60,472 nucleotides of DNA from an uncultured Brevinema sp. GTDB lineage: Bacteria; Spirochaetota; Brevinematia; Brevinematales; Brevinemataceae. The stretch covers positions 1-60,472 of the forward strand of contig CAMQSH010000001.1 of the NCBI GenBank assembly GCA_947036575.1. Direction: 5' to 3'. Below are positions 3,944 to 37,643 of this stretch, one piece after another. Position numbers and translations under genes: made by a program. Each line of letters starts with the position of its first letter. Within the stretch, counting starts at the first letter, position 1. The notes under the pieces were generated by a model. That model worked only from the letters and a program-made list of their open reading frames with translations, searched no databases and had not been told where the DNA came from.

Positions 3944-4870
3944 TTAAAATTGAAATCTAGTAAGAACACCGATATTAAGACCAAATGGTTGACGTTTTGT
4001 AGTTGTTTGAGTACCATTGACTACAAATTCAACCAAAGGCATAATAGCAAAGTAAGAACTTAGCCATGTTTCCATTCTGAATCTTGTTGAAAAGTAAAAC
4101 ACATTTGCTGTATTAGGATTAAATTCTCCATACTCTTCACCTGTGTCAGGATTTTTACCAGGATTATAAATATATCCTAAAAATCTAAATCTATATCTTG
4201 TATAAAAAGTAAATCTATTAATTTTTGAAGAAACTCTAGGACTCCAATTATGATGAATATCAAAAGTTGTATACTCCCACATGGAACGTCTAAATTCAGT
4301 TCCTTTAACACCATCAACAGTAACATCTTTATATCCAGTACCATTAAGCCAAAAACGTGTGGATAATTCATATTTTACTGATGTCGTAGGATTAGGTCTA
4401 TGAGTATAAGATGCAAATACTTGTAATCTACCTCTCGTATCAAACTCTAATGCTAAATAAGGAGTAATATAAGCATGCAAAAATAACATATAATTAAGAT
4501 TGACACTATCTCCTGCCAATCCATTAGCATGTTGTGACCAATTATAAGACCCATAAGCCCAAAATTTGAATGAAAAACGAAGCATCCCATTAAAAAACCA
4601 AGGAGTACCATAACCCCATTCTATTTCGTAACAAGGATTTATTCTATCCATTGCACTAACTGTGCTATTAGGATCATCTAATAATTTTAAAGGATTTGCT
4701 TGGGTAAACCAAAATAGATACATCCCTATCTGTTCTTTAGGCTTTGCTACTGCTTGTACAGCGATTGGATCATCTGTTGTTAACTCCTCAACTAGCACAT
4801 CTTGTGCAAATACACTGACTGATGAAAATAATATAACAAATGCTATATTAATAAATGAAAAATTTCTCAT
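3944..4870 (-). CDS. outer-membrane beta-barrel porin-like protein (copy A)
   Basis: Signal peptide, alternating aromatic/polar beta-strand pattern, C-terminal ...TRFQF. 11 nt upstream of the PL8 gene. Paralog of 6229..7140. Confidence 0.65.
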   Translation of the reverse strand: MRNFSFINIAFVILFSSVSVFAQDVLVEELTTDDPIAVQAVAKPKEQIGMYLFWFTQANPLKLLDDPNSTVSAMDRINPCYEIEWGYGTPWFFNGMLRFSFKFWAYGSYNWSQHANGLAGDSVNLNYMLFLHAYITPYLALEFDTRGRLQVFASYTHRPNPTTSVKYELSTRFWLNGTGYKDVTVDGVKGTEFRRSMWEYTTFDIHHNWSPRVSSKINRFTFYTRYRFRFLGYIYNPGKNPDTGEEYGEFNPNTANVFYFSTRFRMETWLSSYFAIMPLVEFVVNGTQTTTKRQPFGLNIGVLTRFQF

Positions 4871-6228: not shown

Positions 6229-7140
6229 CTAAAATGAAAATCTAGTCATAATACCAACATTAAGCCCAAATGGTTGCCGTTTTGTAGTTGTTTGAGTACC
6301 ATTTACTACAAATTCAAGTAATGGGATAACAGCAAAGTAAGATGATAGCCATGTTTCCATCCGAAATCTTGTTGAAAAGTAAAATACATTTGCTATATTA
6401 GGATTAAACTCTCCATACTCTTCACCTGTATCAGGATTTGTATTTGGAGCATAAATATTTCCTAAAAATCTAATTCTAAATCTTGTATAAAAAGTAAATC
6501 TATTAATTCTTGAAGAAACTTCAGGGCTCCAATTGTGATGAATATTAAAAGTTGTATAATCCCACATAGAGCGTCTGAAGATGGCCTTTCCATCAATATC
6601 TTTATATCCATTACCATTAAGCCAAAATCGTGTAGACAATTCATATTTTACTGATGTAGTAGTATTAGGTCTATGCGTATAGGATATTCCTGCTTGCAGT
6701 CTTCCTCTAGTATCAATCCCTAATACTACATAAGGGGTAATATAAATATTCAAAAATAACATGTAATTAAGAGGAGTACTGTCTCCCTGTAATCCATTTA
6801 CATGTTGTGACCAATTATAAGACCCATAAGCCCAAAATTTAAAAGAAAAACGAAGCATTCTGTTTAAGAACCAAGGTGTACCATAACCCCACTCTATTTC
6901 GTAACAAGGATTTATTCTATCCATTGCACTAACTTCACTATTAGGATCATCTAATAATTTTAAAATGTTTGCTTGGGTAAACCAAAATAAATACATCCCT
7001 ATCTGTTCTTTAGGTTTTTCTATTGCTTGCACAGAGATTGGATCATCTGCAGCTAAATCAGCCATTGTATCTTGTGAAAACACACTAACTGATAAAAATA
7101 ATATAACAAAAGCTATATTAATAAATGAAAAAAATTTCAT
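6229..7140 (-). CDS. outer-membrane beta-barrel porin-like protein (copy B)
   Basis: High identity (roughly 85% by eye) to 3944..4870. Signal peptide. C-terminal ...TRFSF. Confidence 0.65.
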   Translation of the reverse strand: MKFFSFINIAFVILFLSVSVFSQDTMADLAADDPISVQAIEKPKEQIGMYLFWFTQANILKLLDDPNSEVSAMDRINPCYEIEWGYGTPWFLNRMLRFSFKFWAYGSYNWSQHVNGLQGDSTPLNYMLFLNIYITPYVVLGIDTRGRLQAGISYTHRPNTTTSVKYELSTRFWLNGNGYKDIDGKAIFRRSMWDYTTFNIHHNWSPEVSSRINRFTFYTRFRIRFLGNIYAPNTNPDTGEEYGEFNPNIANVFYFSTRFRMETWLSSYFAVIPLLEFVVNGTQTTTKRQPFGLNVGIMTRFSF

Positions 7141-7252: not shown

Positions 7253-7294
7253 GTTAAATACCTTTATATTAATTATCTATTATTAATTAGTTTT

Positions 7295-8056
7295 TTATCT
7301 TGCTAACCAACCACCATCAACAGGGATAATTGCTCCATGAAGATAATTGGATGCATCTGATGCGAGGAACACAATAGGTCCTTGTAGATCTGATGCCAAT
7401 CCCCATGATCCAGCTGGGATACGAGAAAGAATTGCTTTTGCTCTTTCTGGATCAGCCATAATAGGTGCTGTATTGTCAGTATCCATATATCCAGGTGCTA
7501 TTGCATTGACATTAATATTATATTGTGCCCATTCATTTGCCATGAGTCTTGTTAATCCTGCTGCTGCACTTTTTGAAGCAGTATAAGAAGGAACTCTTAT
7601 GCCACCTTGAAAAGAAAGCATGGAACAAATATTAATAATTTTTCCTCTAACTTTTCTTGCTATGTAATGATTTGCTACTGCTTGTGATAAAAAGAATAAG
7701 ACTTTTGAGTTGACATTCATGACATCATCCCAATCTTTTTCTGAAAATACCAAAGAATCATCTCTTCTTATAATACCAGCATTATTGACAAGAATATCAA
7801 TTTTACTAGCACTTGCAAGAGCTTCTTGTACTAAATTTGGGATCACATCTATTGATGAAAGATCTGCCTTGAGCATAAAATAAGGATTCCCTATTTCTTT
7901 CAATTTTTTTTCTGTATCTTCAGCATTGTCTCTATTAACTGCAACAATTGTTGCCCCAGCCTCTGCCAAACCAAGAGCCATACCTTGACCTAAGCCTGTA
8001 TTACAACCTGTTACCATAGCAACTTTACCATTGAGTTTAAAATTATCTAAAATCAT
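7295..8056 (-). CDS. kduD: 2-dehydro-3-deoxy-D-gluconate 5-dehydrogenase
   Basis: 253-aa SDR, collinear with E. coli KduD (GKVAxVTGCxTGLGQGMALGLA ... IAVDGGWLAR). Confidence 0.9.
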   Translation of the reverse strand: MILDNFKLNGKVAMVTGCNTGLGQGMALGLAEAGATIVAVNRDNAEDTEKKLKEIGNPYFMLKADLSSIDVIPNLVQEALASASKIDILVNNAGIIRRDDSLVFSEKDWDDVMNVNSKVLFFLSQAVANHYIARKVRGKIINICSMLSFQGGIRVPSYTASKSAAAGLTRLMANEWAQYNINVNAIAPGYMDTDNTAPIMADPERAKAILSRIPAGSWGLASDLQGPIVFLASDASNYLHGAIIPVDGGWLAR

Positions 8057-8075
8057 TATAATTCCTTATTATTAT

Positions 8076-9275
8076 TTACCAATATAATTCCCATTCATTG
8101 TCTGTGTATAATCTCATAAGAGCTTCCATATAAAAATAGTCACCCCAAGTATTACACTCTTCCATGCCTCTTTTTGTATGCCATGAATAGACACCCTCTA
8201 AAAGTAAGCCATTAGAATTAGGGTCGTTATTTGCAGTAGAATAATTAGCTATTAACTCTCTCATGATAGCATGTGATGCCCCAAGATAAGATTTTTTAAG
8301 AGGATCATTAGCATCTAGATATTTATCCATTTCTAACATTCCACAAACTGCAATTGCAGAAGCTGAAGAATCTCTTACATGTCCATCATTTGCACCAAAA
8401 ATAAGATCCCAATAAGCAACTTCATCTTCAGGACAGCGATTGAGAAAATAATTTGTCATCCCTTTGTAAAGATCAATAAGTTGTGGGTTTTTTGTATAAA
8501 TATAAGTAAGAGGTAGTCCGTAAACACCCCAAGCTTGACCTCTAGCCCAAGAACTCGTATCGCTATATCCTTGTCTCGTTACTCCTTTAACGGGAGCTCC
8601 TGTTTTGGAATCAAAATAAAAAGTATGATAGGCAGATGCATCATCTCTAACTACTGTATTACAAGAACTAACCATATGTTTTGTTGCTAAGTCTGAATAT
8701 TTTTCATCCTTCGTAACTTCTGTTGCCCAATAAAGAAGAGGTATATTAAGTAAGCAGTCAATAATAAGTCTATAATTTTCTTCTGCTCCCAATTCTCCCC
8801 AAGCTTGAAGAAATTGTCCTTTTTCTTGAAAACGAGAAGCTAATTGATTTGCCGCTTTAATAGCTGAGTCTTTACCCATTTCGTTACCTGTTAATTTGTA
8901 AGCAGCAACACAACTAGGAGTATATAAAAATCCCATATCATGGTGATCTACTTCAATCTTTCTGTCTATTCTGTCAGTATAGCTAACAACTTGTATTTCT
9001 GCTGCTTTTCTGTATTTTTCATCACCAGTATATTCATATGCTAGCCAAAGAATTCCTGTCCAAAAACCATTTGTCCAGTCCACATTTTCAATAGGCTCAT
9101 ACACATGACCAAAGCTATTTGGCCCAGGAAATTTATCAGTAAACATAGGAAGAGCATCTGAAATTTTTTGTATAGCACCATCAAGAGCTTGTTTAACTTC
9201 TTCTTTTGTTAGAAGAGTAACGTTTTTATAATACTCTTGTTTTTTTAATGGTTCTATAGCTATTGATTTAATCAT
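8076..9275 (-). CDS. ugl: unsaturated glucuronyl hydrolase, GH88
   Basis: 399 aa, GH88-sized, (alpha/alpha)6 barrel-like sequence. Sits in the classic ugl-PTS-kduI-kduD context. Confidence 0.8.
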   Translation of the reverse strand: MIKSIAIEPLKKQEYYKNVTLLTKEEVKQALDGAIQKISDALPMFTDKFPGPNSFGHVYEPIENVDWTNGFWTGILWLAYEYTGDEKYRKAAEIQVVSYTDRIDRKIEVDHHDMGFLYTPSCVAAYKLTGNEMGKDSAIKAANQLASRFQEKGQFLQAWGELGAEENYRLIIDCLLNIPLLYWATEVTKDEKYSDLATKHMVSSCNTVVRDDASAYHTFYFDSKTGAPVKGVTRQGYSDTSSWARGQAWGVYGLPLTYIYTKNPQLIDLYKGMTNYFLNRCPEDEVAYWDLIFGANDGHVRDSSASAIAVCGMLEMDKYLDANDPLKKSYLGASHAIMRELIANYSTANNDPNSNGLLLEGVYSWHTKRGMEECNTWGDYFYMEALMRLYTDNEWELYW

Positions 9276-31369: not shown

Positions 31370-31948
31370 ATGAAAACTTTTATTTTATTATTATTACTGA
31401 CTACTGGTAATGTTGCAATATCACCAGCTCAGTCTATTACAAAAAATTTTAACAGTATAATAGCTCCTATTATTGACAACTATCCAAAAACTTTTGAAGT
31501 CCAAAGAAGAAGAAGCGTCAGAAGAACAAGACGTACTACTCGTCGTGCTCCAAATCAACAAAGACAGAATCAACAATCCAATCAAAGAAATCGTTCAGGA
31601 TTATTTGGGGGATTATTTGGAGGAATGCTTTTAGGTAGTATGTTTGGAAATATGTTTGGCGGTGGTGGTGGCGGTGGATCCCTACTGATGATTATATTAC
31701 TAGGCTTTGGTATCATGGCATTTTTACGTGCTAGATCTCACAGAAATAATTCAGACCGTTACACAGATATTCAATCTGATAATTATTCAAACAACTATTT
31801 AGACAATGATACAGATGACAACGAAGATGAAGTTGCCGAAGAAACCATCGAAGAAATCTACGAAGACGATGTCCTAGTAGAAACCAGACGTACTTTTAGT
31901 AACTCCTCTGACGTTGAGATTACTGACCATAGAAAAGATAAAAAATAA
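31370..31948 (+). CDS. low-complexity membrane protein (Arg/Gln-rich, Gly-zipper TM, acidic tail)
   Basis: Signal peptide, RRRSVRRTRRTTRR, GLFGGLFGGMLLGSMFGNMFGGGGGGG, one TM segment, D/E-rich C-terminus. No recognisable family. Confidence 0.5.
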   Translation: MKTFILLLLLTTGNVAISPAQSITKNFNSIIAPIIDNYPKTFEVQRRRSVRRTRRTTRRAPNQQRQNQQSNQRNRSGLFGGLFGGMLLGSMFGNMFGGGGGGGSLLMIILLGFGIMAFLRARSHRNNSDRYTDIQSDNYSNNYLDNDTDDNEDEVAEETIEEIYEDDVLVETRRTFSNSSDVEITDHRKDKK

Positions 31949-31977: not shown

Positions 31978-32616
31978 CTAGTGATGAGCTTTTATCATAT
32001 GTTTTTTTAATATATAAATAATAGTAGAATAAAAAGCCGTATCCTTAGGCAATCTTTCTAATAAGATGAGTGCATCGTTCTCCGTTATATTATCAATATC
32101 TGTATAGATTTTTATAACTTCTTTTCTTTTGTCTTTTAATTTTTTATCATTCAAATTTAATTTATTTATACTTGCCCAAGCTTTTTGATTTGAAGGATCT
32201 GATCTAATTTCTCCAGTCAAAGAGTACGTAAAATTTTTAGCACAATGTGGATCTAGTGGAGATATAAAACCATAAGCAGGATCATAATTTTTTTTATGTT
32301 TTCCACAATGATCTAATTTTGTTCCATCTATTCTATCTCCCCCACAAGACATAACAATATTATTATAATGATAAGATTTGTCTTGATAAGTACTTCTTGG
32401 ATAAATATGTTCAATATGACTTAAACTGATACCATTTTTATTCTCACCCTCAGGCAATTCATCCTCACAGTAAGCACAGAGATAGGACTGTTCTTCTTTT
32501 AATATATCTTTCACACTATTTTTTAAATGATTCTTTAAATTATCCCAAACACCTGTATGCTGTTGAAATTGTTGTATAATAGGATCTAAAAGTTTTGTTT
32601 TTTTAATATATTTCAT
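31978..32616 (-). CDS. ptuB: HNH endonuclease, Septu PtuB-like
   Basis: CAYCE ... HIEHIYPRS ... NNIVMSCGG ... HCGKHK (HNH/zinc motifs). 212 aa. Starts 3 nt after the ATPase stop. Confidence 0.65.
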   Translation of the reverse strand: MKYIKKTKLLDPIIQQFQQHTGVWDNLKNHLKNSVKDILKEEQSYLCAYCEDELPEGENKNGISLSHIEHIYPRSTYQDKSYHYNNIVMSCGGDRIDGTKLDHCGKHKKNYDPAYGFISPLDPHCAKNFTYSLTGEIRSDPSNQKAWASINKLNLNDKKLKDKRKEVIKIYTDIDNITENDALILLERLPKDTAFYSTIIYILKKHMIKAHH

Positions 32617-32619
32617 TGG

Positions 32620-33885
32620 TTATTTTCCCAAGATTTCTATTCTTTTAACCCACGCGTTTAACTTGGTTATTTCAGTATCATTACCTATTTTTTCTTTGAG
32701 TATCTTTATTGCTTGTTTGGCTTTATCTACTTTTTTATCATCTAACAAAGTATATATATTTTTGATTTGATCTTCTATTTCAAAATCTCTTTTTGATGAA
32801 TCCATAATATATTCTAAAATTTGATCACTCGTTTTACCATACATCACATGTTCTAATTGTAGTGGCTTAATATTATTTGTTTCACTAAGTTCTTGTTGGT
32901 TCAAAATAAATACAGAACAATTAGAAATACTAGAAATTACTTGAGGGGAATGGGTTGTAACAATAAATTGACAATTTGGAAATATTTCTACTAATTTTGG
33001 TAATATTTCTCTTTGCCATTTTGGGTGTAAATGCAATGCAATTTCATCAATGAAAATAACTCCTTTACCTTTTAATGGATCTAACAAGCTATGATTTAAC
33101 ATTGTTAACCTTCGTGCTATATCCCCTATTAAAGCTATATAAAGTTTTTCTCCTTGAGATAATAATTCCATATCTAACTCGGAAACAGTCCCATCATATA
33201 ATTTTTTTGTTAGTAATAATAGATGTGGGTGTCCTCTTTGTAATTTGATAAAATGAAATCCTGTGAATTTTTGAATAGCTGCTTTAACTGGTTGTAAACT
33301 ATCAACTAATATTCCCGTTTCTCGTAATTTTTCATTAATAATATCATCTTGATTACGATACCATTCGAAAAAAAGACGAAAATCAGTTTTACCTGTCAAA
33401 CAATTATCATAAGCATTTATTCTACTAAACTCATTTTTAATTGTTACATTTATAGGCATCATCATAACAGCTCTTTCAGCACGATAATAGGCTATTAGTG
33501 GTAAATCAATAGTATCATTATCATCATAGAGTTTTTCTATATTATTATTTTTTTGCTCTGAAAAATTTTGCTTATAATGAGTAGGCTTATTTTTTATTAT
33601 TGAATAATCAACAGTACAATCTGCTGATAATTTGTACATATCACTAGAAAACACAATCCCAATATTACAAGAACGTTCATTTTTACGAATGTCTGTTTTT
33701 TTATTAAAAACAATTTGTTTTTGAGGAAAAGGAAGTGCTCTATTCAACAACAAAGCACAAGCATCAAGAATAGACGTTTTACCAACACCATTATTTCCAA
33801 TAATAATATTCATTTGAGGATGAAATTGTATCTTACAACTTGCTATGCCACGAAAATTTTTTAGGGTTACATCCTTCAATATCAC
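32620..33885 (-). CDS. ptuA: AAA/ABC-like ATPase, Septu PtuA-like
   Basis: Walker A GNNGVGKTS, signature-like LSQGEK, Walker B VIFIDEIALHLHP, TTHSP. GTG start with a GGGAG RBS. Confidence 0.65.
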   Translation of the reverse strand: MILKDVTLKNFRGIASCKIQFHPQMNIIIGNNGVGKTSILDACALLLNRALPFPQKQIVFNKKTDIRKNERSCNIGIVFSSDMYKLSADCTVDYSIIKNKPTHYKQNFSEQKNNNIEKLYDDNDTIDLPLIAYYRAERAVMMMPINVTIKNEFSRINAYDNCLTGKTDFRLFFEWYRNQDDIINEKLRETGILVDSLQPVKAAIQKFTGFHFIKLQRGHPHLLLLTKKLYDGTVSELDMELLSQGEKLYIALIGDIARRLTMLNHSLLDPLKGKGVIFIDEIALHLHPKWQREILPKLVEIFPNCQFIVTTHSPQVISSISNCSVFILNQQELSETNNIKPLQLEHVMYGKTSDQILEYIMDSSKRDFEIEDQIKNIYTLLDDKKVDKAKQAIKILKEKIGNDTEITKLNAWVKRIEILGK

Positions 33886-33971: not shown

Positions 33972-34601
33972 TTATTTTGTAAAAATTCCAAAAGGTTTGC
34001 CCATAGGAATAAATTCTCTTTTGAATTGAGTATTTAATACTGTTCCTGCTGCACCATAAAAGGAAACAAGTGATATTAATAATTCAGAAATCCCAGCTAA
34101 TTGATGAGTTAGTTCTGTCGCAATTCCAAAAGTTGTTAGTGATAATCCTATAAATAAAAAATTTATGAGCAAAAAAATAATAAATAACACTTTATTCGTT
34201 TCCATAGAAGCAACTGTCATAAATAAGGTGAAAATAAGATACCCAACAAATGCAACTCCTAGTTGATTTATATCTGCATTTTGTGCCATTTCTTCGCCGA
34301 AAACACCATGTTGTATCATCCATGTTGTACCAACAGCAAACCAAAAAAAGCCATATCCACAGAATGCTGTTGCCCCAAAAGTATTATTTAACTTTGCATC
34401 TAGCATACCTGCATAAAATTGAGCTATAGCACCCAAAAAGATAGCCCATGGTATTACCAAAGAAGTACCCTCTGTAAATCCTAATTTTTGTGATGAAGCA
34501 ACTAAAGTAACCATTGCTAAGCCAAAAAGACCTATTGCACTAGGATTTGCTACAACTTCAGCTACCTTTGTAACCTGTGAATCATTTGAGTGTTCTGACA
34601 T
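33972..34601 (-). CDS. satP: GPR1/FUN34/YaaH-family acetate/succinate channel
   Basis: NPSAIGLFGLAM N-terminal motif. 6 TM segments. 209 aa. Confidence 0.75.
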   Translation of the reverse strand: MSEHSNDSQVTKVAEVVANPSAIGLFGLAMVTLVASSQKLGFTEGTSLVIPWAIFLGAIAQFYAGMLDAKLNNTFGATAFCGYGFFWFAVGTTWMIQHGVFGEEMAQNADINQLGVAFVGYLIFTLFMTVASMETNKVLFIIFLLINFLFIGLSLTTFGIATELTHQLAGISELLISLVSFYGAAGTVLNTQFKREFIPMGKPFGIFTK

Positions 34602-35063
34602 CTAATTTTCTCCTAAGATAATTGTATTATTAATATTTATGTCGGTTTGTGTACTAGAAAAACTATACTATCATCACTATAAAAACGTGCTTTCTAACTT
34701 ACTATATTGTTATTTTTATCTAGTAAATTATTTTATAATTATCTTAAAATCCATAAAAAACATATGAGTTCTGTATATATTTTTTTTATTTGTTGATTAG
34801 ATTTTTTGCTTATTTTATTTGTTTTTATCCAGTAAGACGTATTTAGTATGATTCCATATAAAACTAATATTATAGAATCTATTAGTTTTGGTATGATATA
34901 AAAGATAGGAAGAATCATCATCACAAAATGATATTTTATTAGAATAGATATTTACCCCTATTATATTAAGTATCTATATCTCCCCCAATACTAATTATCT
35001 TTAATATTATATCATTTGCACTTTAAAAATGCAATACTATTTCACTATATAATAAACAATTTA

Positions 35064-35092
35064 TTGACAAAAGATTATTCCTATGATATAAT
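35064..35092 (+). promoter_or_regulatory. perfect sigma70 consensus promoter TTGACA-17-TATAAT
   Basis: -35 at 35064-35069 and -10 at 35087-35092. The predicted +1 is near G35099. Confidence 0.75.
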
Positions 35093-35098
35093 AAAAGT

Positions 35099-35331
35099 GC
35101 TTACATTTTAGGATCTTTTATAGATCTCTTTTATTTCTATCTTAGATTTATTAAAGATAGAGGTTTTCTGTGTAGAAAATCTCTTTTTATTTTAAATCTA
35201 AGAAGTGTGTCTCCATATTTGTTTTTATAACTACTTCTATCTAAATTCATATTAATTGCTCATAGCAGTTTGTGTATTTTTACGGAAGTAGTTATAAATA
35301 GAAATATTTAGATCTTTCCTAAAATGTAAGC
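35099..35331 (+). ncRNA. structured RNA of unknown class (~233 nt, Y-shaped, 5' and 3' ends paired)
   Basis: A 15-bp perfect closing helix (35099-35113 / 35317-35331) starts at the predicted +1. There are further helices and two capped arms. G.U pairs fit only the + strand. No ORF. Confidence 0.6.
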
Positions 35332-35586
35332 AATACAAACTCTATGGGCTTTTTTAGTGATATAGGGATTAGCGTAGCACGACTAATAGCTTACTGCATT
35401 TAGAGAACGTAGAAATAATTTGTTAAGTAAAATCTCTTAGACAAAAAACAATATAGAAGATCTTATGCTCTAGAATATGGGACGCCATACCTTAAGTATA
35501 TAGACTCTATATACGTTATATTAAATTAATATCACAAAATAATATATAGTAGTGTATAAAGAATATACAGTACAAGGAGTATATAA

Positions 35587-36006
35587 ATGAAAAAAATTCT
35601 TATTTTAGGATTAATTTTTGCAGCTGTAGGATGTTCTAATGAACCAGAGCTAAATATGGACGAGATCAACAAAGCTGCTGCCTTAGCAATGCTAAAAGGA
35701 TCTTACAAAACAACTGTGAATACTCCTATTATTTCAGAAGTGTTTATAACTATAGGAACAGATGTCACTATTGATACTTTAAATTTTTCTATAACAGCAA
35801 CAGATGTTGCAAACAATCTTAGCTTTGAATACCTAGAAGTAAAAGAAGGTTGGGTTGTTTATAAAGTTACCTTTAATAGTAAAACCAAATATACAGCTTT
35901 AGGAACTGGTAACGGTTTTATTATAACAGAATCTATGGACTTCAGAGATAGTCAAGATGCTCTTACTTTTCCAGAAGAAGGAAGACCATTTCTTAAAAAA
36001 CAGTAA
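35587..36006 (+). CDS. lipoprotein, unknown function (copy 1)
   Basis: Lipobox AAVGCS, AGGAG RBS. Paralog of 36273..36746. Confidence 0.7.
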   Translation: MKKILILGLIFAAVGCSNEPELNMDEINKAAALAMLKGSYKTTVNTPIISEVFITIGTDVTIDTLNFSITATDVANNLSFEYLEVKEGWVVYKVTFNSKTKYTALGTGNGFIITESMDFRDSQDALTFPEEGRPFLKKQ

Positions 36007-36026
36007 TTAATTACTAATTTACTAAT

Positions 36027-36061
36027 TAAAAAAGCCTCTATTAATTTAGAGGCTTTTTTTA
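36027..36061. terminator. bidirectional terminator (copy 1)
   Basis: AGCCTCTA / TAGAGGCT stem with an A-run and a T-run. Confidence 0.75.
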
Positions 36062-36062
36062 T

Positions 36063-36165
36063 CTATATTTTATCCATAGTAGCAATAAAGAGATTATATA
36101 ATTCATCATATTCTTCTTTTTCACCAAGATCTGCTAACATCTTGTCTAGTTTGTTAATACTATCT
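36063..36165 (-). pseudogene. duplicated 3'-terminal fragment of the cyclase-like gene
   Basis: Near-identical to 36802-36905. Encodes ...SINKLDKMLADLGEKEEYDELYNLFIATMDKI* with no upstream part. Confidence 0.8.
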
Positions 36166-36205
36166 AATAATTTTTACCAAATTGAGATTTTTTATTTCAA
36201 TCTAT

Positions 36206-36234
36206 TTGACATGTTAATCCGATTATATTATACT
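36206..36234 (+). promoter_or_regulatory. sigma70-type promoter TTGACA-17-TATACT
   Basis: Lies in the duplication junction, upstream of lipoprotein copy 2. Confidence 0.6.
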
Positions 36235-36272
36235 ATATTATACAAAAGGTGTACACTACAAGGGGTATATAA

Positions 36273-36746
36273 ATGAAAAAAATTCTTATTTTAGGATTAA
36301 TTTTTGTAGCTGCAGGATGTTCTAATGAACCGCAACTAAACAAAAAGTCGCAACTAGATGAAAAGCCTCAACTAGATGCGGACGAGATCAATCAAGCTGT
36401 TGCCCTAGAAATGCTAAAAGGATCTTACAAAACAATCGAACTTACTGGTTTTATTTCGAAAGTGGATATAACTATAGGAACAGATGTCACTATTGATACT
36501 TTAAATTTTTCTATAACAGCAACAGATGTTGCAGACAATCTTAGCTTTGAGTACCTAGATATAAAGGGAAAATGGGTTGTTTATAAAGTTACCTTTAATA
36601 GTGAAACCAAATATACAGCTTTAGGAGCAGGAAAGAGTCGTGATGGTACCGAAAGTTTTATGCTAATAGAATCTTCTACATTCCGAGATAGCCCAGATGC
36701 TGTTACTTTTCCAGAACAAGGCATCACATTCCTTGATAAACCATAA
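36273..36746 (+). CDS. lipoprotein, unknown function (copy 2, with inserted KSQLDEKPQLD segment)
   Basis: Lipobox AAAGCS. Long identical blocks with copy 1 (TIGTDVTIDTLNFSITATDVA.NLSFEYL). Confidence 0.7.
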   Translation: MKKILILGLIFVAAGCSNEPQLNKKSQLDEKPQLDADEINQAVALEMLKGSYKTIELTGFISKVDITIGTDVTIDTLNFSITATDVADNLSFEYLDIKGKWVVYKVTFNSETKYTALGAGKSRDGTESFMLIESSTFRDSPDAVTFPEQGITFLDKP

Positions 36747-36801: not shown

Positions 36802-37605
36802 CTATATTTTATCCATAGTAGCAATAAAGAGATTATATAATTCATCATATTCTTCTTTTTCACCAAGATCTGCTAACATCTTGTCTAGTTTGTTGATACT
36901 ATCTATTTTTTTATATTTAATATTATCTATTATCGCAGACTCCATATGCTCATCATAATCAAATACAATATTTTTCCAATCTCTACAATACCATATAATT
37001 GGATATGCTCTATTATTCCAAACTCCTTTGAGTTTTTCATAGCTCACTATTCTTAAATGTTCTGATATATTACTTTTACATGCATCAGGGCATTGCATTT
37101 TGTACAGTGTGTAGGCTAGTTTGGCACATACTATTATTCTGCCTTTTGTCACATATTTAGTAATCCTAAAGCCAGTGTCAATATCACTCCCTATAAAATC
37201 GAGAGAATCATTAGCACATCCTGTAGATAAAGCCACATTATTATAATTTTTTATGGTCTCATTATATTCAGTAATATCAGCAGCCCATACAGAAGATTTC
37301 GCATAAATAGAATTATCGTCAGATAAAGATTCTTGTATAATAGTTAAAGTATTGTCTATATATTCAAGTATTTTATACATTTCTGTCTTATCTTTTATCA
37401 CTACATAAAATAAAATCTCATCCCCTAAACGCTTCCATACTTTTAGCTCTGAATAAACAAAACAACTCCTCAAATATTCAGCTGATATTAGATAGAAATC
37501 ATGAAATACTTTAGGCCATTTTTTTGGATATTTGTATTTATATGCTGTAGAATCTACTAAATCGATAGATATAAAAACATATAATAACTCTTCTTGTTCT
37601 GCCAT
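36802..37605 (-). CDS. palm-domain nucleotide cyclase-like protein (class III cyclase / GGDEF / mCpol superfamily), orphan
   Basis: Motifs FISIDLVDST, WKRLGDEILF, DFIGSDIDTGFRI. Start moved to the ATG at 37605, 8 nt after AAGGAGG. Confidence 0.55.
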   Translation of the reverse strand: MAEQEELLYVFISIDLVDSTAYKYKYPKKWPKVFHDFYLISAEYLRSCFVYSELKVWKRLGDEILFYVVIKDKTEMYKILEYIDNTLTIIQESLSDDNSIYAKSSVWAADITEYNETIKNYNNVALSTGCANDSLDFIGSDIDTGFRITKYVTKGRIIVCAKLAYTLYKMQCPDACKSNISEHLRIVSYEKLKGVWNNRAYPIIWYCRDWKNIVFDYDEHMESAIIDNIKYKKIDSINKLDKMLADLGEKEEYDELYNLFIATMDKI

Positions 37606-37643
37606 GTCACCCCCCTCCTTTCTATTAAACAACCGTAAGATAT

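Follow-up and report, generated by a model that had tools for sequence, protein, structure and literature searches.

A candidate family of structured, multi-copy RNAs in uncultured Brevinema

Structured bacterial RNAs of more than 200 nt that belong to no known class are, to our knowledge, rare, and orphan RNAs of this kind have earlier led to new biochemistry. The element described here appears to be such an RNA. It lies on the forward strand, from position 35,099 onward, of a stretch of 60,472 nucleotides (the window) from an uncultured Brevinema sp. (assembly GCA_947036575.1, contig CAMQSH010000001.1); Brevinema is a common, uncultured member of the fish gut community. Comparison of the recovered sequences indicates that the element is one copy of a multi-copy, previously undescribed RNA family that is so far found only in Brevinema. 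Closest to it in kind are the large orphan structured RNAs and the attenuator leaders, and it is a member of neither. The novelty lies in the RNA family, and what is said of function below is a proposal.

The families OLE, GOLLD, ROOL and the raiA motif share with the element a length above 200 nt, many helices, strong covariation, a long-range pseudoknot, a non-coding sequence and a frequent location in variable genome regions; this likeness is of kind only. The element differs from them in having no Rfam model match, in its smaller size, in a GC content of 25% (30.7% in the window), in having several paralogues per genome with fully diverged helices and in its restriction to one genus. Riboswitch and attenuator leaders resemble it in the variable helices round a conserved core, in a helix followed by U residues, in the 5' strand of that helix, which can be sequestered, and in the usual position upstream of a co-oriented gene. 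In contrast to such leaders, the element has a "terminator" with pseudoknotted strands that 57 nt separate, most of the downstream genes are preceded by promoters and terminators of their own, one copy (locus L010) has no downstream gene, and the neighbouring genes suggest no ligand class.

6S RNA has a similar closing pairing of the 5' and 3' ends and a strong promoter, and like the element is predicted to be abundant and stable, but the element has no rod with a central bubble, no match to RF00013, a branched fold and several copies. Retron msr-msd RNAs also have their own promoter, closing terminal inverted repeats and short hairpins followed by a long one; the element differs in having no adjacent reverse transcriptase at the scanned loci, in the lack of a conserved priming G and in the additional pseudoknot helix on its 3' side. 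The promoter-carrying repeats of the Correia or miniature inverted-repeat transposable element (MITE) type are likewise short, multi-copy, intergenic, bounded by inverted repeats and found near surface-protein genes, but the copies of the element are not near-identical and differ by compensatory changes, its structure is specific to one strand, and a search for target-site duplications found none.

Copies, promoter and fold of the RNA

Ten distinct variants were obtained, all from uncultured Brevinema (metagenome-assembled genomes of Brevinema and ENA metagenomes). A 20-mer from the apex of arm 2 matched two species genomes, both metagenome-assembled genomes of uncultured Brevinema sp. (L009 and L010), and further loci were reached by walking from neighbour proteins through the ENA and Logan assemblies. 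A covariance model from the three closest sequences (R1) picked out the family. With a family-level covariance model of the 3' half (R2), no second copy was found in the window and no additional copies in 173 kb of Brevinema DNA. Two copies, L009a and L009b, share one 3.3-kb contig, and the metagenome sample ERZ28619698 contains three variants (L004, L014 and L022). The 5' part of L016 could not be aligned to helices P1-P3, and this variant was used only from arm 2 onward. Many contigs stop inside or beside the element, as expected for a repeat.

Outside Brevinema, BLASTN gave no match to plasmids and a single chance match of 45 nt to phages, nothing related was found among viral contigs, and an exact 20-mer had no match in the JGI metagenomes. 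The sole JGI match to a degenerate three-anchor pattern (L021) lies inside a coding region and was discarded as a chance match. The Brevinema literature found in a limited search consists of gut microbiota surveys, mostly of fish, and of spirochaete taxonomy, with no RNA work among the papers listed; an earlier description is possible.

The promoter of the element scores 12 of 12 in a consensus scan, plus the extended TGn with its TG at 35084-85. It is the only site above 10/12 within 34500-36100, a region in which weak sites were more numerous in shuffles than observed. The -10 box is followed by a 6-nt discriminator and then by G35099, which we infer to be the +1 of the transcript; this G is 7 nt past the box and a member of the first pair of P1. 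The same geometry of a -35 box, exactly 17 nt, a -10 box, exactly 6 nt and the first G of P1 recurs in each of the nine copies whose 5' end can be read. The -35 box is TTGACA in seven of these nine and the -10 box is TATAAT or TATACT. Upstream of the -35 box the loci are unrelated in sequence.

The upstream regions have two further features. In L009 (440-520, minus strand) three tandem units of about 35 nt (AAAAUCCCUCUUGNCAAAGGNAUUCGNCUUAUUUC) are located directly upstream of the L009b promoter; each has a -35-like TTGNCA, and the last unit provides the real -35 box of L009b. Stretches free of open reading frames (ORFs) precede the RNA promoters in L028 (858 nt, 7253-8110) and in the window (460 nt, 34602-35063).

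The minimum free energy of the plus strand is -82.6 kcal/mol, compared with -36.2 +/- 3.7 kcal/mol for 200 shuffles (z -12.6), none of which equalled it. The minus strand reaches -65.8 kcal/mol (z -9.7) and is the weaker of the two. The fold is characterized by a rod, P1-P2-P3, which meets arms 1 and 2 at a three-way junction. P1, the closing helix, has 16 bp if the pair T35098/A35332 is counted and 15-19 bp in the family, and no further exact copy of either of its arms occurs in the window.

The covariation analysis was based on a model-guided alignment (A10) of nine sequences with 77 pairs and 673 cells. Standard pairs are formed in 95.2% of the cells, against 76.2% when shuffled, and 47 of the 77 pairs have double changes; none of 500 shuffles equalled the observed value on any of five covariation measures, and sliding the partners by 1-3 columns lowered the pairing to 40-45%. 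Since A10 was fitted to the structure of the model it is biased in favour of that structure; however, folding L009b, L022, L026, L027 and L028 as single sequences gave the helices independently. In P1 all cells are paired and 14 of the 15 pairs have changed on both sides, and in P5 both-side changes are found in all 12 counted pairs. P2 is 98% paired with four such pairs, and P3 is 99% paired and conserved in sequence too. Even the near-identical L026 and L027 differ in P5, by a change from CACG/CGUG to CCAG/CUGG. The helix sequences are almost wholly different between the copies with pairing retained, and the comparative support is clean for a set of just ten sequences. G.U pairs fill 62 cells and A.C only six, and the opposite strand would pair in just 86.9%; the excess of G.U over A.C indicates that the folded strand is the plus strand.

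These data bear on a reading at the DNA level, in which the element is a cruciform, a recombination site or a mobile repeat such as a MITE. The ends do resemble terminal inverted repeats, there are several copies, contig breaks are frequent at the element, and it is found in variable regions beside hypervariable surface-protein genes. However, the copies differ at most helix positions and the differences are compensated, the G.U cells far exceed the A.C cells, every copy retains a promoter in its exact place, direct repeats were not found at the flanks, the window has a single copy, and helix P7 (see below) falls outside the "inverted repeat". A mobile repeat was rejected on these grounds, and a DNA-level element of any of these types is highly improbable.

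The sequence does not appear to encode a protein. There is no plus-strand ORF of at least 20 aa inside the RNA, and in nine variants no frame on either strand is open across the element. An AUG in the tail lacks a Shine-Dalgarno sequence and is replaced by GUG in L009b and AUA in L016. A type I toxin-antitoxin RNA (hok-like) was rejected, with no frame open across the element in nine copies and the AUG of the tail unconserved.

Rfam 15 gave no matches at the gathering score over the whole window. At E up to 10 in 34600-35700 only two chance matches (a miRNA and a snoRNA) were obtained, and at E up to 1 in five other loci only matches far below threshold, to miRNA precursors, a few small RNA or antisense models and U6. 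A tmRNA or a tRNA-like gene was rejected, as ARAGORN found no genes in the window. A highly diverged housekeeping RNA (6S, SRP, RNase P, tmRNA or Y RNA) missed by Rfam would agree with the strong promoter, the closing stem of the 5' and 3' ends and the predicted stability. It is extremely improbable with these null results, with several divergent paralogues per genome, with a GC content below that of the window and with a three-way junction and a pseudoknot instead of the 6S-type rod.

Most of this agrees with an earlier note on the window, made from the sequence alone. The perfect sigma70 consensus with a 17-nt spacer and the +1 predicted at G35099 have correct coordinates, and the 15-bp helix from G35099, the AGATCT helix, P3, both arms and both capping hairpins proposed there are all in the minimum free energy fold. 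Two G.U pairs had been noted to agree with the direction of the promoter and no ORF had been seen; both observations extend to the family. The note had also recognised no RNA class, which the Rfam searches, housekeeping RNAs included, bear out, and the compensatory changes that it named as a check on homologues are present.

Arm 1, the 3' tail and helix P7

In arm 1, hairpin P4b (-10.9 kcal/mol) with its U tract (UUUUUAUUUU) resembles an intrinsic terminator, designated T1. It is found in every complete variant with a covarying stem and a retained U tract, including L010, where the U tract is without an A-rich partner. This resemblance is puzzling, as in the proposed full-length RNA the conserved 3' two-thirds must be transcribed through T1. 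The main product could instead be a short RNA, about 95 nt long and terminated at T1, with a free 5' segment of 42 nt as a seed and the long form as a self-masked read-through. The canonical form of T1 and its covarying stem in every complete copy are in its favour, but the best-conserved part is the 3' two-thirds, the covariation of P1, P2, P3 and P5 places the full-length fold under selection, and the putative seed is almost wholly different between copies before the same gene. The short RNA is therefore very unlikely as the main product. In the full-length RNA, the arm-1 hairpin and U tract would pause transcription, terminate it in part or provide an Hfq-like binding module.

The best-conserved sequence of the family is the apex of arm 2, and the 19 nt past P1 (AAUACAAACUCUAUGGGCU, 35332-35350) are conserved in all variants. 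When the tail of each of the 10 variants was scanned against the whole of its own body, the best partner was the same strand of the apex in 10 of 10 (z -4.7 to -7.2), and none of 300 shuffles was as good. The resulting helix, P7, joins 35333-35349 with 35258-35275 in 17 bp of -22.6 kcal/mol and is a pseudoknot because it crosses P5, P3, P2 and P1. RNAalifold on the 3' half alone also picks P7. By column 95.9% of the cells are paired, a value reached by four of 500 shuffles, and there are two double changes. Differences in the apex are accompanied by a matching change of the tail or by a shift of the bulge, as in L009b (GGGUA opposite UGCCC), L016 (UAU opposite AUA) and L022 and L027 (AGAGC). 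A pairing of loop and tail limited to 8 bp forms in 71 of 72 cells but is no better than shuffles, the signal requiring the full 17-bp helix. From these comparisons P7 is well supported but not proven. At least three U residues follow it directly in nine of the ten variants, and coaxial stacking of P7 on P1, with 1 nt between them on the 3' strand, is plausible.

The apical hairpin of arm 2 (7 bp, -7.0 kcal/mol) competes for the same strand. It is paired in 84.9% of the cells, no better than shuffles, it has no double changes and it is broken in four variants. The capping hairpin of arm 2 in the earlier note is part of the minimum free energy fold and is not evolutionarily kept, P7 being kept instead. 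A local terminator hairpin of the tail (CUC-UAU-GGG) was rejected; L009b and L004 are the only variants that form it, L016 and L010 do not, and the long-range pairing suits all variants. Downstream of the tail (35356-35460 and homologues) no convincing fold was found (z -2.2 to +1.1). The 3' end is probably in the tail, at the U tract. It had been placed at 35331, which is too short by the 17 nt that belong to the fold; the conserved RNA runs to about 35355.

Several properties of the RNA are unusual: the 5'-terminal nucleotide is paired, a pseudoknot of 17 bp ties the tail to the distal arm and is immediately followed by a U tract, the interior of the molecule has a conserved hairpin that resembles a terminator, and the helices of paralogues are fully diverged yet paired.

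Two minor observations concern the tail. At L028 (about 6935-6965, minus strand) a back-up terminator, CCUCAUAGCAUUUGUUAUGAGG followed by U5, resembles the sequence of the arm-2 apex, and its 5' strand is complementary to the tail of the RNA itself; this is found at L028 only. The apical loop CUCAUAG of the window (35261-35265 / 35344-35346) resembles the anticodon loop of tRNA-Met, its CAU pairing with the AUG of the tail within P7. Without a Shine-Dalgarno sequence or a conserved ORF, this is probably a coincidence.

Table 1. Features of the window element, its copies at other loci and the neighbouring genes.
Feature	Sequence	Position	Strand	Remarks
Sigma-70 promoter	Window	35064-35092	+	-35 TTGACA 35064-69; 17-nt spacer; extended -10 TGaTATAAT 35084-92
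RNA, window variant	Window	35099-35356	+	Identical in L006
P1, 5' strand	Window	35099-35113	+	Perfect 15 bp with 35317-35331; closing helix, begins at the first transcribed base
P2 and P3, 5' strands	Window	35122-35140	+	P2 35122-27 (AGATCT) / 35310-15; P3 35132-40 (TATTTCTAT) / 35298-306
Arm 1	Window	35141-35202	+	Basal helix 35141-50 / 35193-202; hairpin P4b 35159-69 / 35174-84, loop GUGU; U tract 35185-35194
J4/5 linker	Window	35203-35224	+	22 nt; length and sequence vary among copies; about 80 nt in L022
Arm 2	Window	35225-35297	+	P5 35225-38 / 35284-97 around conserved apex 35239-35283
P7, 5' strand	Window	35258-35275	+	3' side of arm-2 apex (GCUCAUAGCAGUUUGUGU); pairs with tail or, alternatively, in weak apical hairpin
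P3, P2 and P1, 3' strands	Window	35298-35331	+	P3 35298-306; P2 35310-15; P1 35317-31
3' tail	Window	35332-35355	+	Linker A; P7 3' strand AUACAAACUCUAUGGGC 35333-35349; U tract UUUUUU 35350-55
Semi-conserved 3' extension	Window	35356-35449	+	Ends at CAAAAAAC 35442-49, the deletion junction; not significantly structured
PtuB	Window	31978-32616	-	PADLOC E 2e-43
PtuA	Window	32620-33885	-	PADLOC E 6e-116
YaaH/SatP-type membrane protein	Window	33972-34601	-	Between Septu and RNA
Downstream lipoprotein gene	Window	35587-36006	+	139 aa, lipobox AAVGC; not part of RNA
Second lipoprotein gene	Window	36273-36746	+	Tandem paralogue, 67% identical to first
276-aa ORF	Window	36802-37632	-	267 aa in another gene call; conserved in L006
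RNA variant	L004	196-452
RNA variant	L009a	2174-2430
RNA variant	L009b	404-140	opposite	Shares 3.3-kb contig with L009a
RNA variant	L010	1920-2175
RNA variant	L016			5' end cut by contig end; also seen as L014, L017-20
RNA variant	L022	82-405
RNA variant	L026	7312-7034
RNA variant	L027	1892-1615
RNA variant	L028	7252-6996

Mode of action and the genes downstream

The element very probably represents a real, independently transcribed structured RNA family. The fuller statement, that it is a free-standing non-coding RNA gene of about 255 nt with several paralogues per genome whose product acts in trans as a scaffold or decoy, falls slightly short of an even chance. In the proposed mechanism P7 and the U tract at 35350-55 would set the 3' end. 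Both termini would be buried in helices and the RNA would be long-lived and abundant; protected helical ends together with a consensus promoter predict a stable, abundant RNA. Conserved AU-rich single strands would be exposed on the 5' side of the apex, freed by P7, in the 8 nt after P7 and in the U tract of arm 1. These would form a putative protein-binding surface, and the RNA would act in trans as a protein scaffold or decoy and not by pairing with mRNA. The protein-binding, trans-acting mode taken separately is a tentative suggestion and rather doubtful.

The genes downstream of the copies are consistent with a separate transcription unit. At L010 two terminators and a convergent gene come after the RNA. 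The downstream gene has its own near-consensus promoter in L006, L004, L016/L014, L009/L022 and L026, and conventional back-up terminators are found 20-150 nt past the tail in L028, L026/27, L004, L006 and L016. The RNAs of L009a and L022 differ in nearly every helix, yet the outer membrane protein (OMP) genes behind them are 99% identical; conversely, the window and L006 have identical RNAs and lipoproteins that are only 48% identical. The energies of RNA-mRNA duplexes with the downstream start regions were within the shuffled distribution at five loci. A base-pairing small RNA of the Hfq type acting on the adjacent gene was rejected on the same five loci, where duplex energies stayed in the range of the shuffles, and the variable parts do not track the downstream gene.

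Several points weigh against a free-standing RNA that acts in trans. Both ends of the RNA were inferred from sequence, the protein partner is hypothetical, and covariation gives P7 only modest support, most positions of the helix being invariant. P7 is attenuator-like, being a stable helix followed by U residues with a 5' strand that can be hidden in a weaker hairpin. Wherever the neighbour can be read, with the exception of L010, the RNA precedes a same-strand gene for an exported product, which is a lipoprotein, an OMP or a secreted ankyrin protein. In L028 the interval from the RNA to the lipoprotein gene has no recognisable promoter, and the window and L005 lack the terminator and promoter module, so that co-transcription, and hence a role in cis, is possible there.

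The main alternative is a cis-acting leader or conditional terminator for exported-protein genes. The apex hairpin would be the anti-terminator, P7 with the U tract would be the terminator, and the fold or a binder (a ligand, a protein or temperature) would set the read-through. P7, directly before the U residues, and the apex hairpin of about -7 kcal/mol share one strand and in form make a pair of terminator and anti-terminator; variable helices combined with a conserved junction and apex are riboswitch-like, and the RNA is co-oriented with an exported-protein gene in the window, L006, L004, L016/L014, L009a/L022, L028 and L026/27. An uninterrupted path from RNA to gene, with no intervening promoter or terminator, is found in the window, in L005 and perhaps in L028, but not in L006, L004, L016, L009, L026 or L010. 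Against a leader are also the convergent gene of L010, the strong separate promoters and extra terminators of most loci and the distance of the start codon, 165-430 nt past the tail. The association is statistically weak, as there is only a small number of lipoprotein, OMP and ankyrin loci, paralogous blocks among them, and we know of no precedent for an intrinsic terminator whose strands are separated by 57 structured nucleotides. A leader of this type is possible but unlikely. The narrower proposal of a new sensory RNA, in which the strands of the distal-arm apex and the tail would build a pseudoknotted intrinsic terminator that works only when the whole 230-nt domain is folded, with read-through into surface-protein genes set via that fold by a ligand, a protein or temperature, is more unlikely still; if true, it would be a previously undescribed attenuation logic for the exported proteins of a gut spirochaete.

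The earlier note had suggested a switchable 5' leader, and an obligatory leader role is unsupported, given the convergent gene of L010 and the own promoters at most other loci. It had further suggested that a second GCTTAC box (GCTTACTGCATT, 35389-35400) could compete for the 3' strand of P1. The box is missing in L004, and in L009b the homologous stretch is still AGCUCUUACU although P1 has changed to GUUAAAACC; it is neither conserved nor does it covary with P1.

The absence of the terminator and promoter module from the window can be traced to a deletion. L006 (about 4716-4860), L004 (about 470-600), L016 (about 285-400) and L014 have a segment of about 100-130 nt that is missing from the window and L005. 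It contains a covarying terminator hairpin and a lipoprotein promoter, TTGACT/TTGATT-N17-TATAAT. In L006 it is flanked by a direct repeat of CAAAAAAC, of which the window retains one copy at the junction (35442-35449). Judged by this comparison, the window strain has its RNA unit fused to the lipoprotein gene through loss of the segment. There, transcription from the RNA promoter is the sole recognisable source of lipoprotein mRNA, and the gene at 35587-36006 may be reached by read-through.

Highly divergent lipoprotein alleles are found behind an identical or near-identical RNA and 5' untranslated region (window 35587-36746, L006 5001-5465, L014 304-774, L016 532-963); L016 carries P0004 and L014 carries P0007. 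The pattern looks like a cassette-style diversification of a surface lipoprotein.

Neighbouring genes and their relation to defence systems

In the window a complete Septu pair, PtuB then PtuA, is located 1.2 kb from the RNA. PtuA/PtuB are near the RNA in the window and L006 only; at the copies on L009, L010 and L026-L028 neither the surrounding ORFs nor the called genes include Septu, and the other neighbours on the short contigs L004, L016 and L022 were not scanned for them. A Septu-associated RNA was rejected on this distribution. The Septu-like pair of the earlier note is real, and neither a functional link to the RNA nor the label of a cyclase-like neighbour is confirmed: the 276-aa protein had no match in Pfam, NCBIfam or PADLOC. 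No tRNA or tmRNA genes were found in the window with ARAGORN.

The second-best PADLOC matches of PtuA and PtuB are the retron type I-A ATPase and HNH profiles. A retron-like RNA, or another template of a reverse transcriptase, would also have the terminal closing helix and the long hairpins, and the covarying P1 corresponds to closing inverted repeats of the a1/a2 type. However, no RVT domain (Pfam) was found in 10 window neighbours or in the scanned neighbours of L009 and L010, and no reverse transcriptase is listed among the called genes of L026-L031; a retron RNA was rejected on the missing domain. P1 is followed by UCUUUUAU in the window type and by UAGAAAU in other copies, and no G is conserved at a fixed position that could serve for branching. 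The yaaH gene separates the RNA from Septu in the window, and no Septu genes were seen beside the copies of L009, L010 and L026-L028. Such a template is about as improbable as the diverged housekeeping RNA.

Other defence genes are found near other copies. An AIPR abortive-infection protein is encoded in L028 (4317-6344), and in L026-L031 a type I restriction-modification system and a Fic protein are near the RNA (L026 10629-17587). From the gene content, the copies of the RNA sit in variable islands with defence and surface-protein genes, and the RNA may therefore bear on the control of the Brevinema surface.

A family of exported proteins of 183-208 aa is encoded within 0.2-3 kb of RNA copies at three different loci (window 31370-31948, L009 566-1192, L026 10001-10552). 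Its members combine a signal peptide and a RRRSVRRTRRTTRR stretch with a membrane segment rich in Gly and a tail that is acidic, with no Pfam or NCBIfam family above cut-off; the member P0016 is 66% identical to that of L009.

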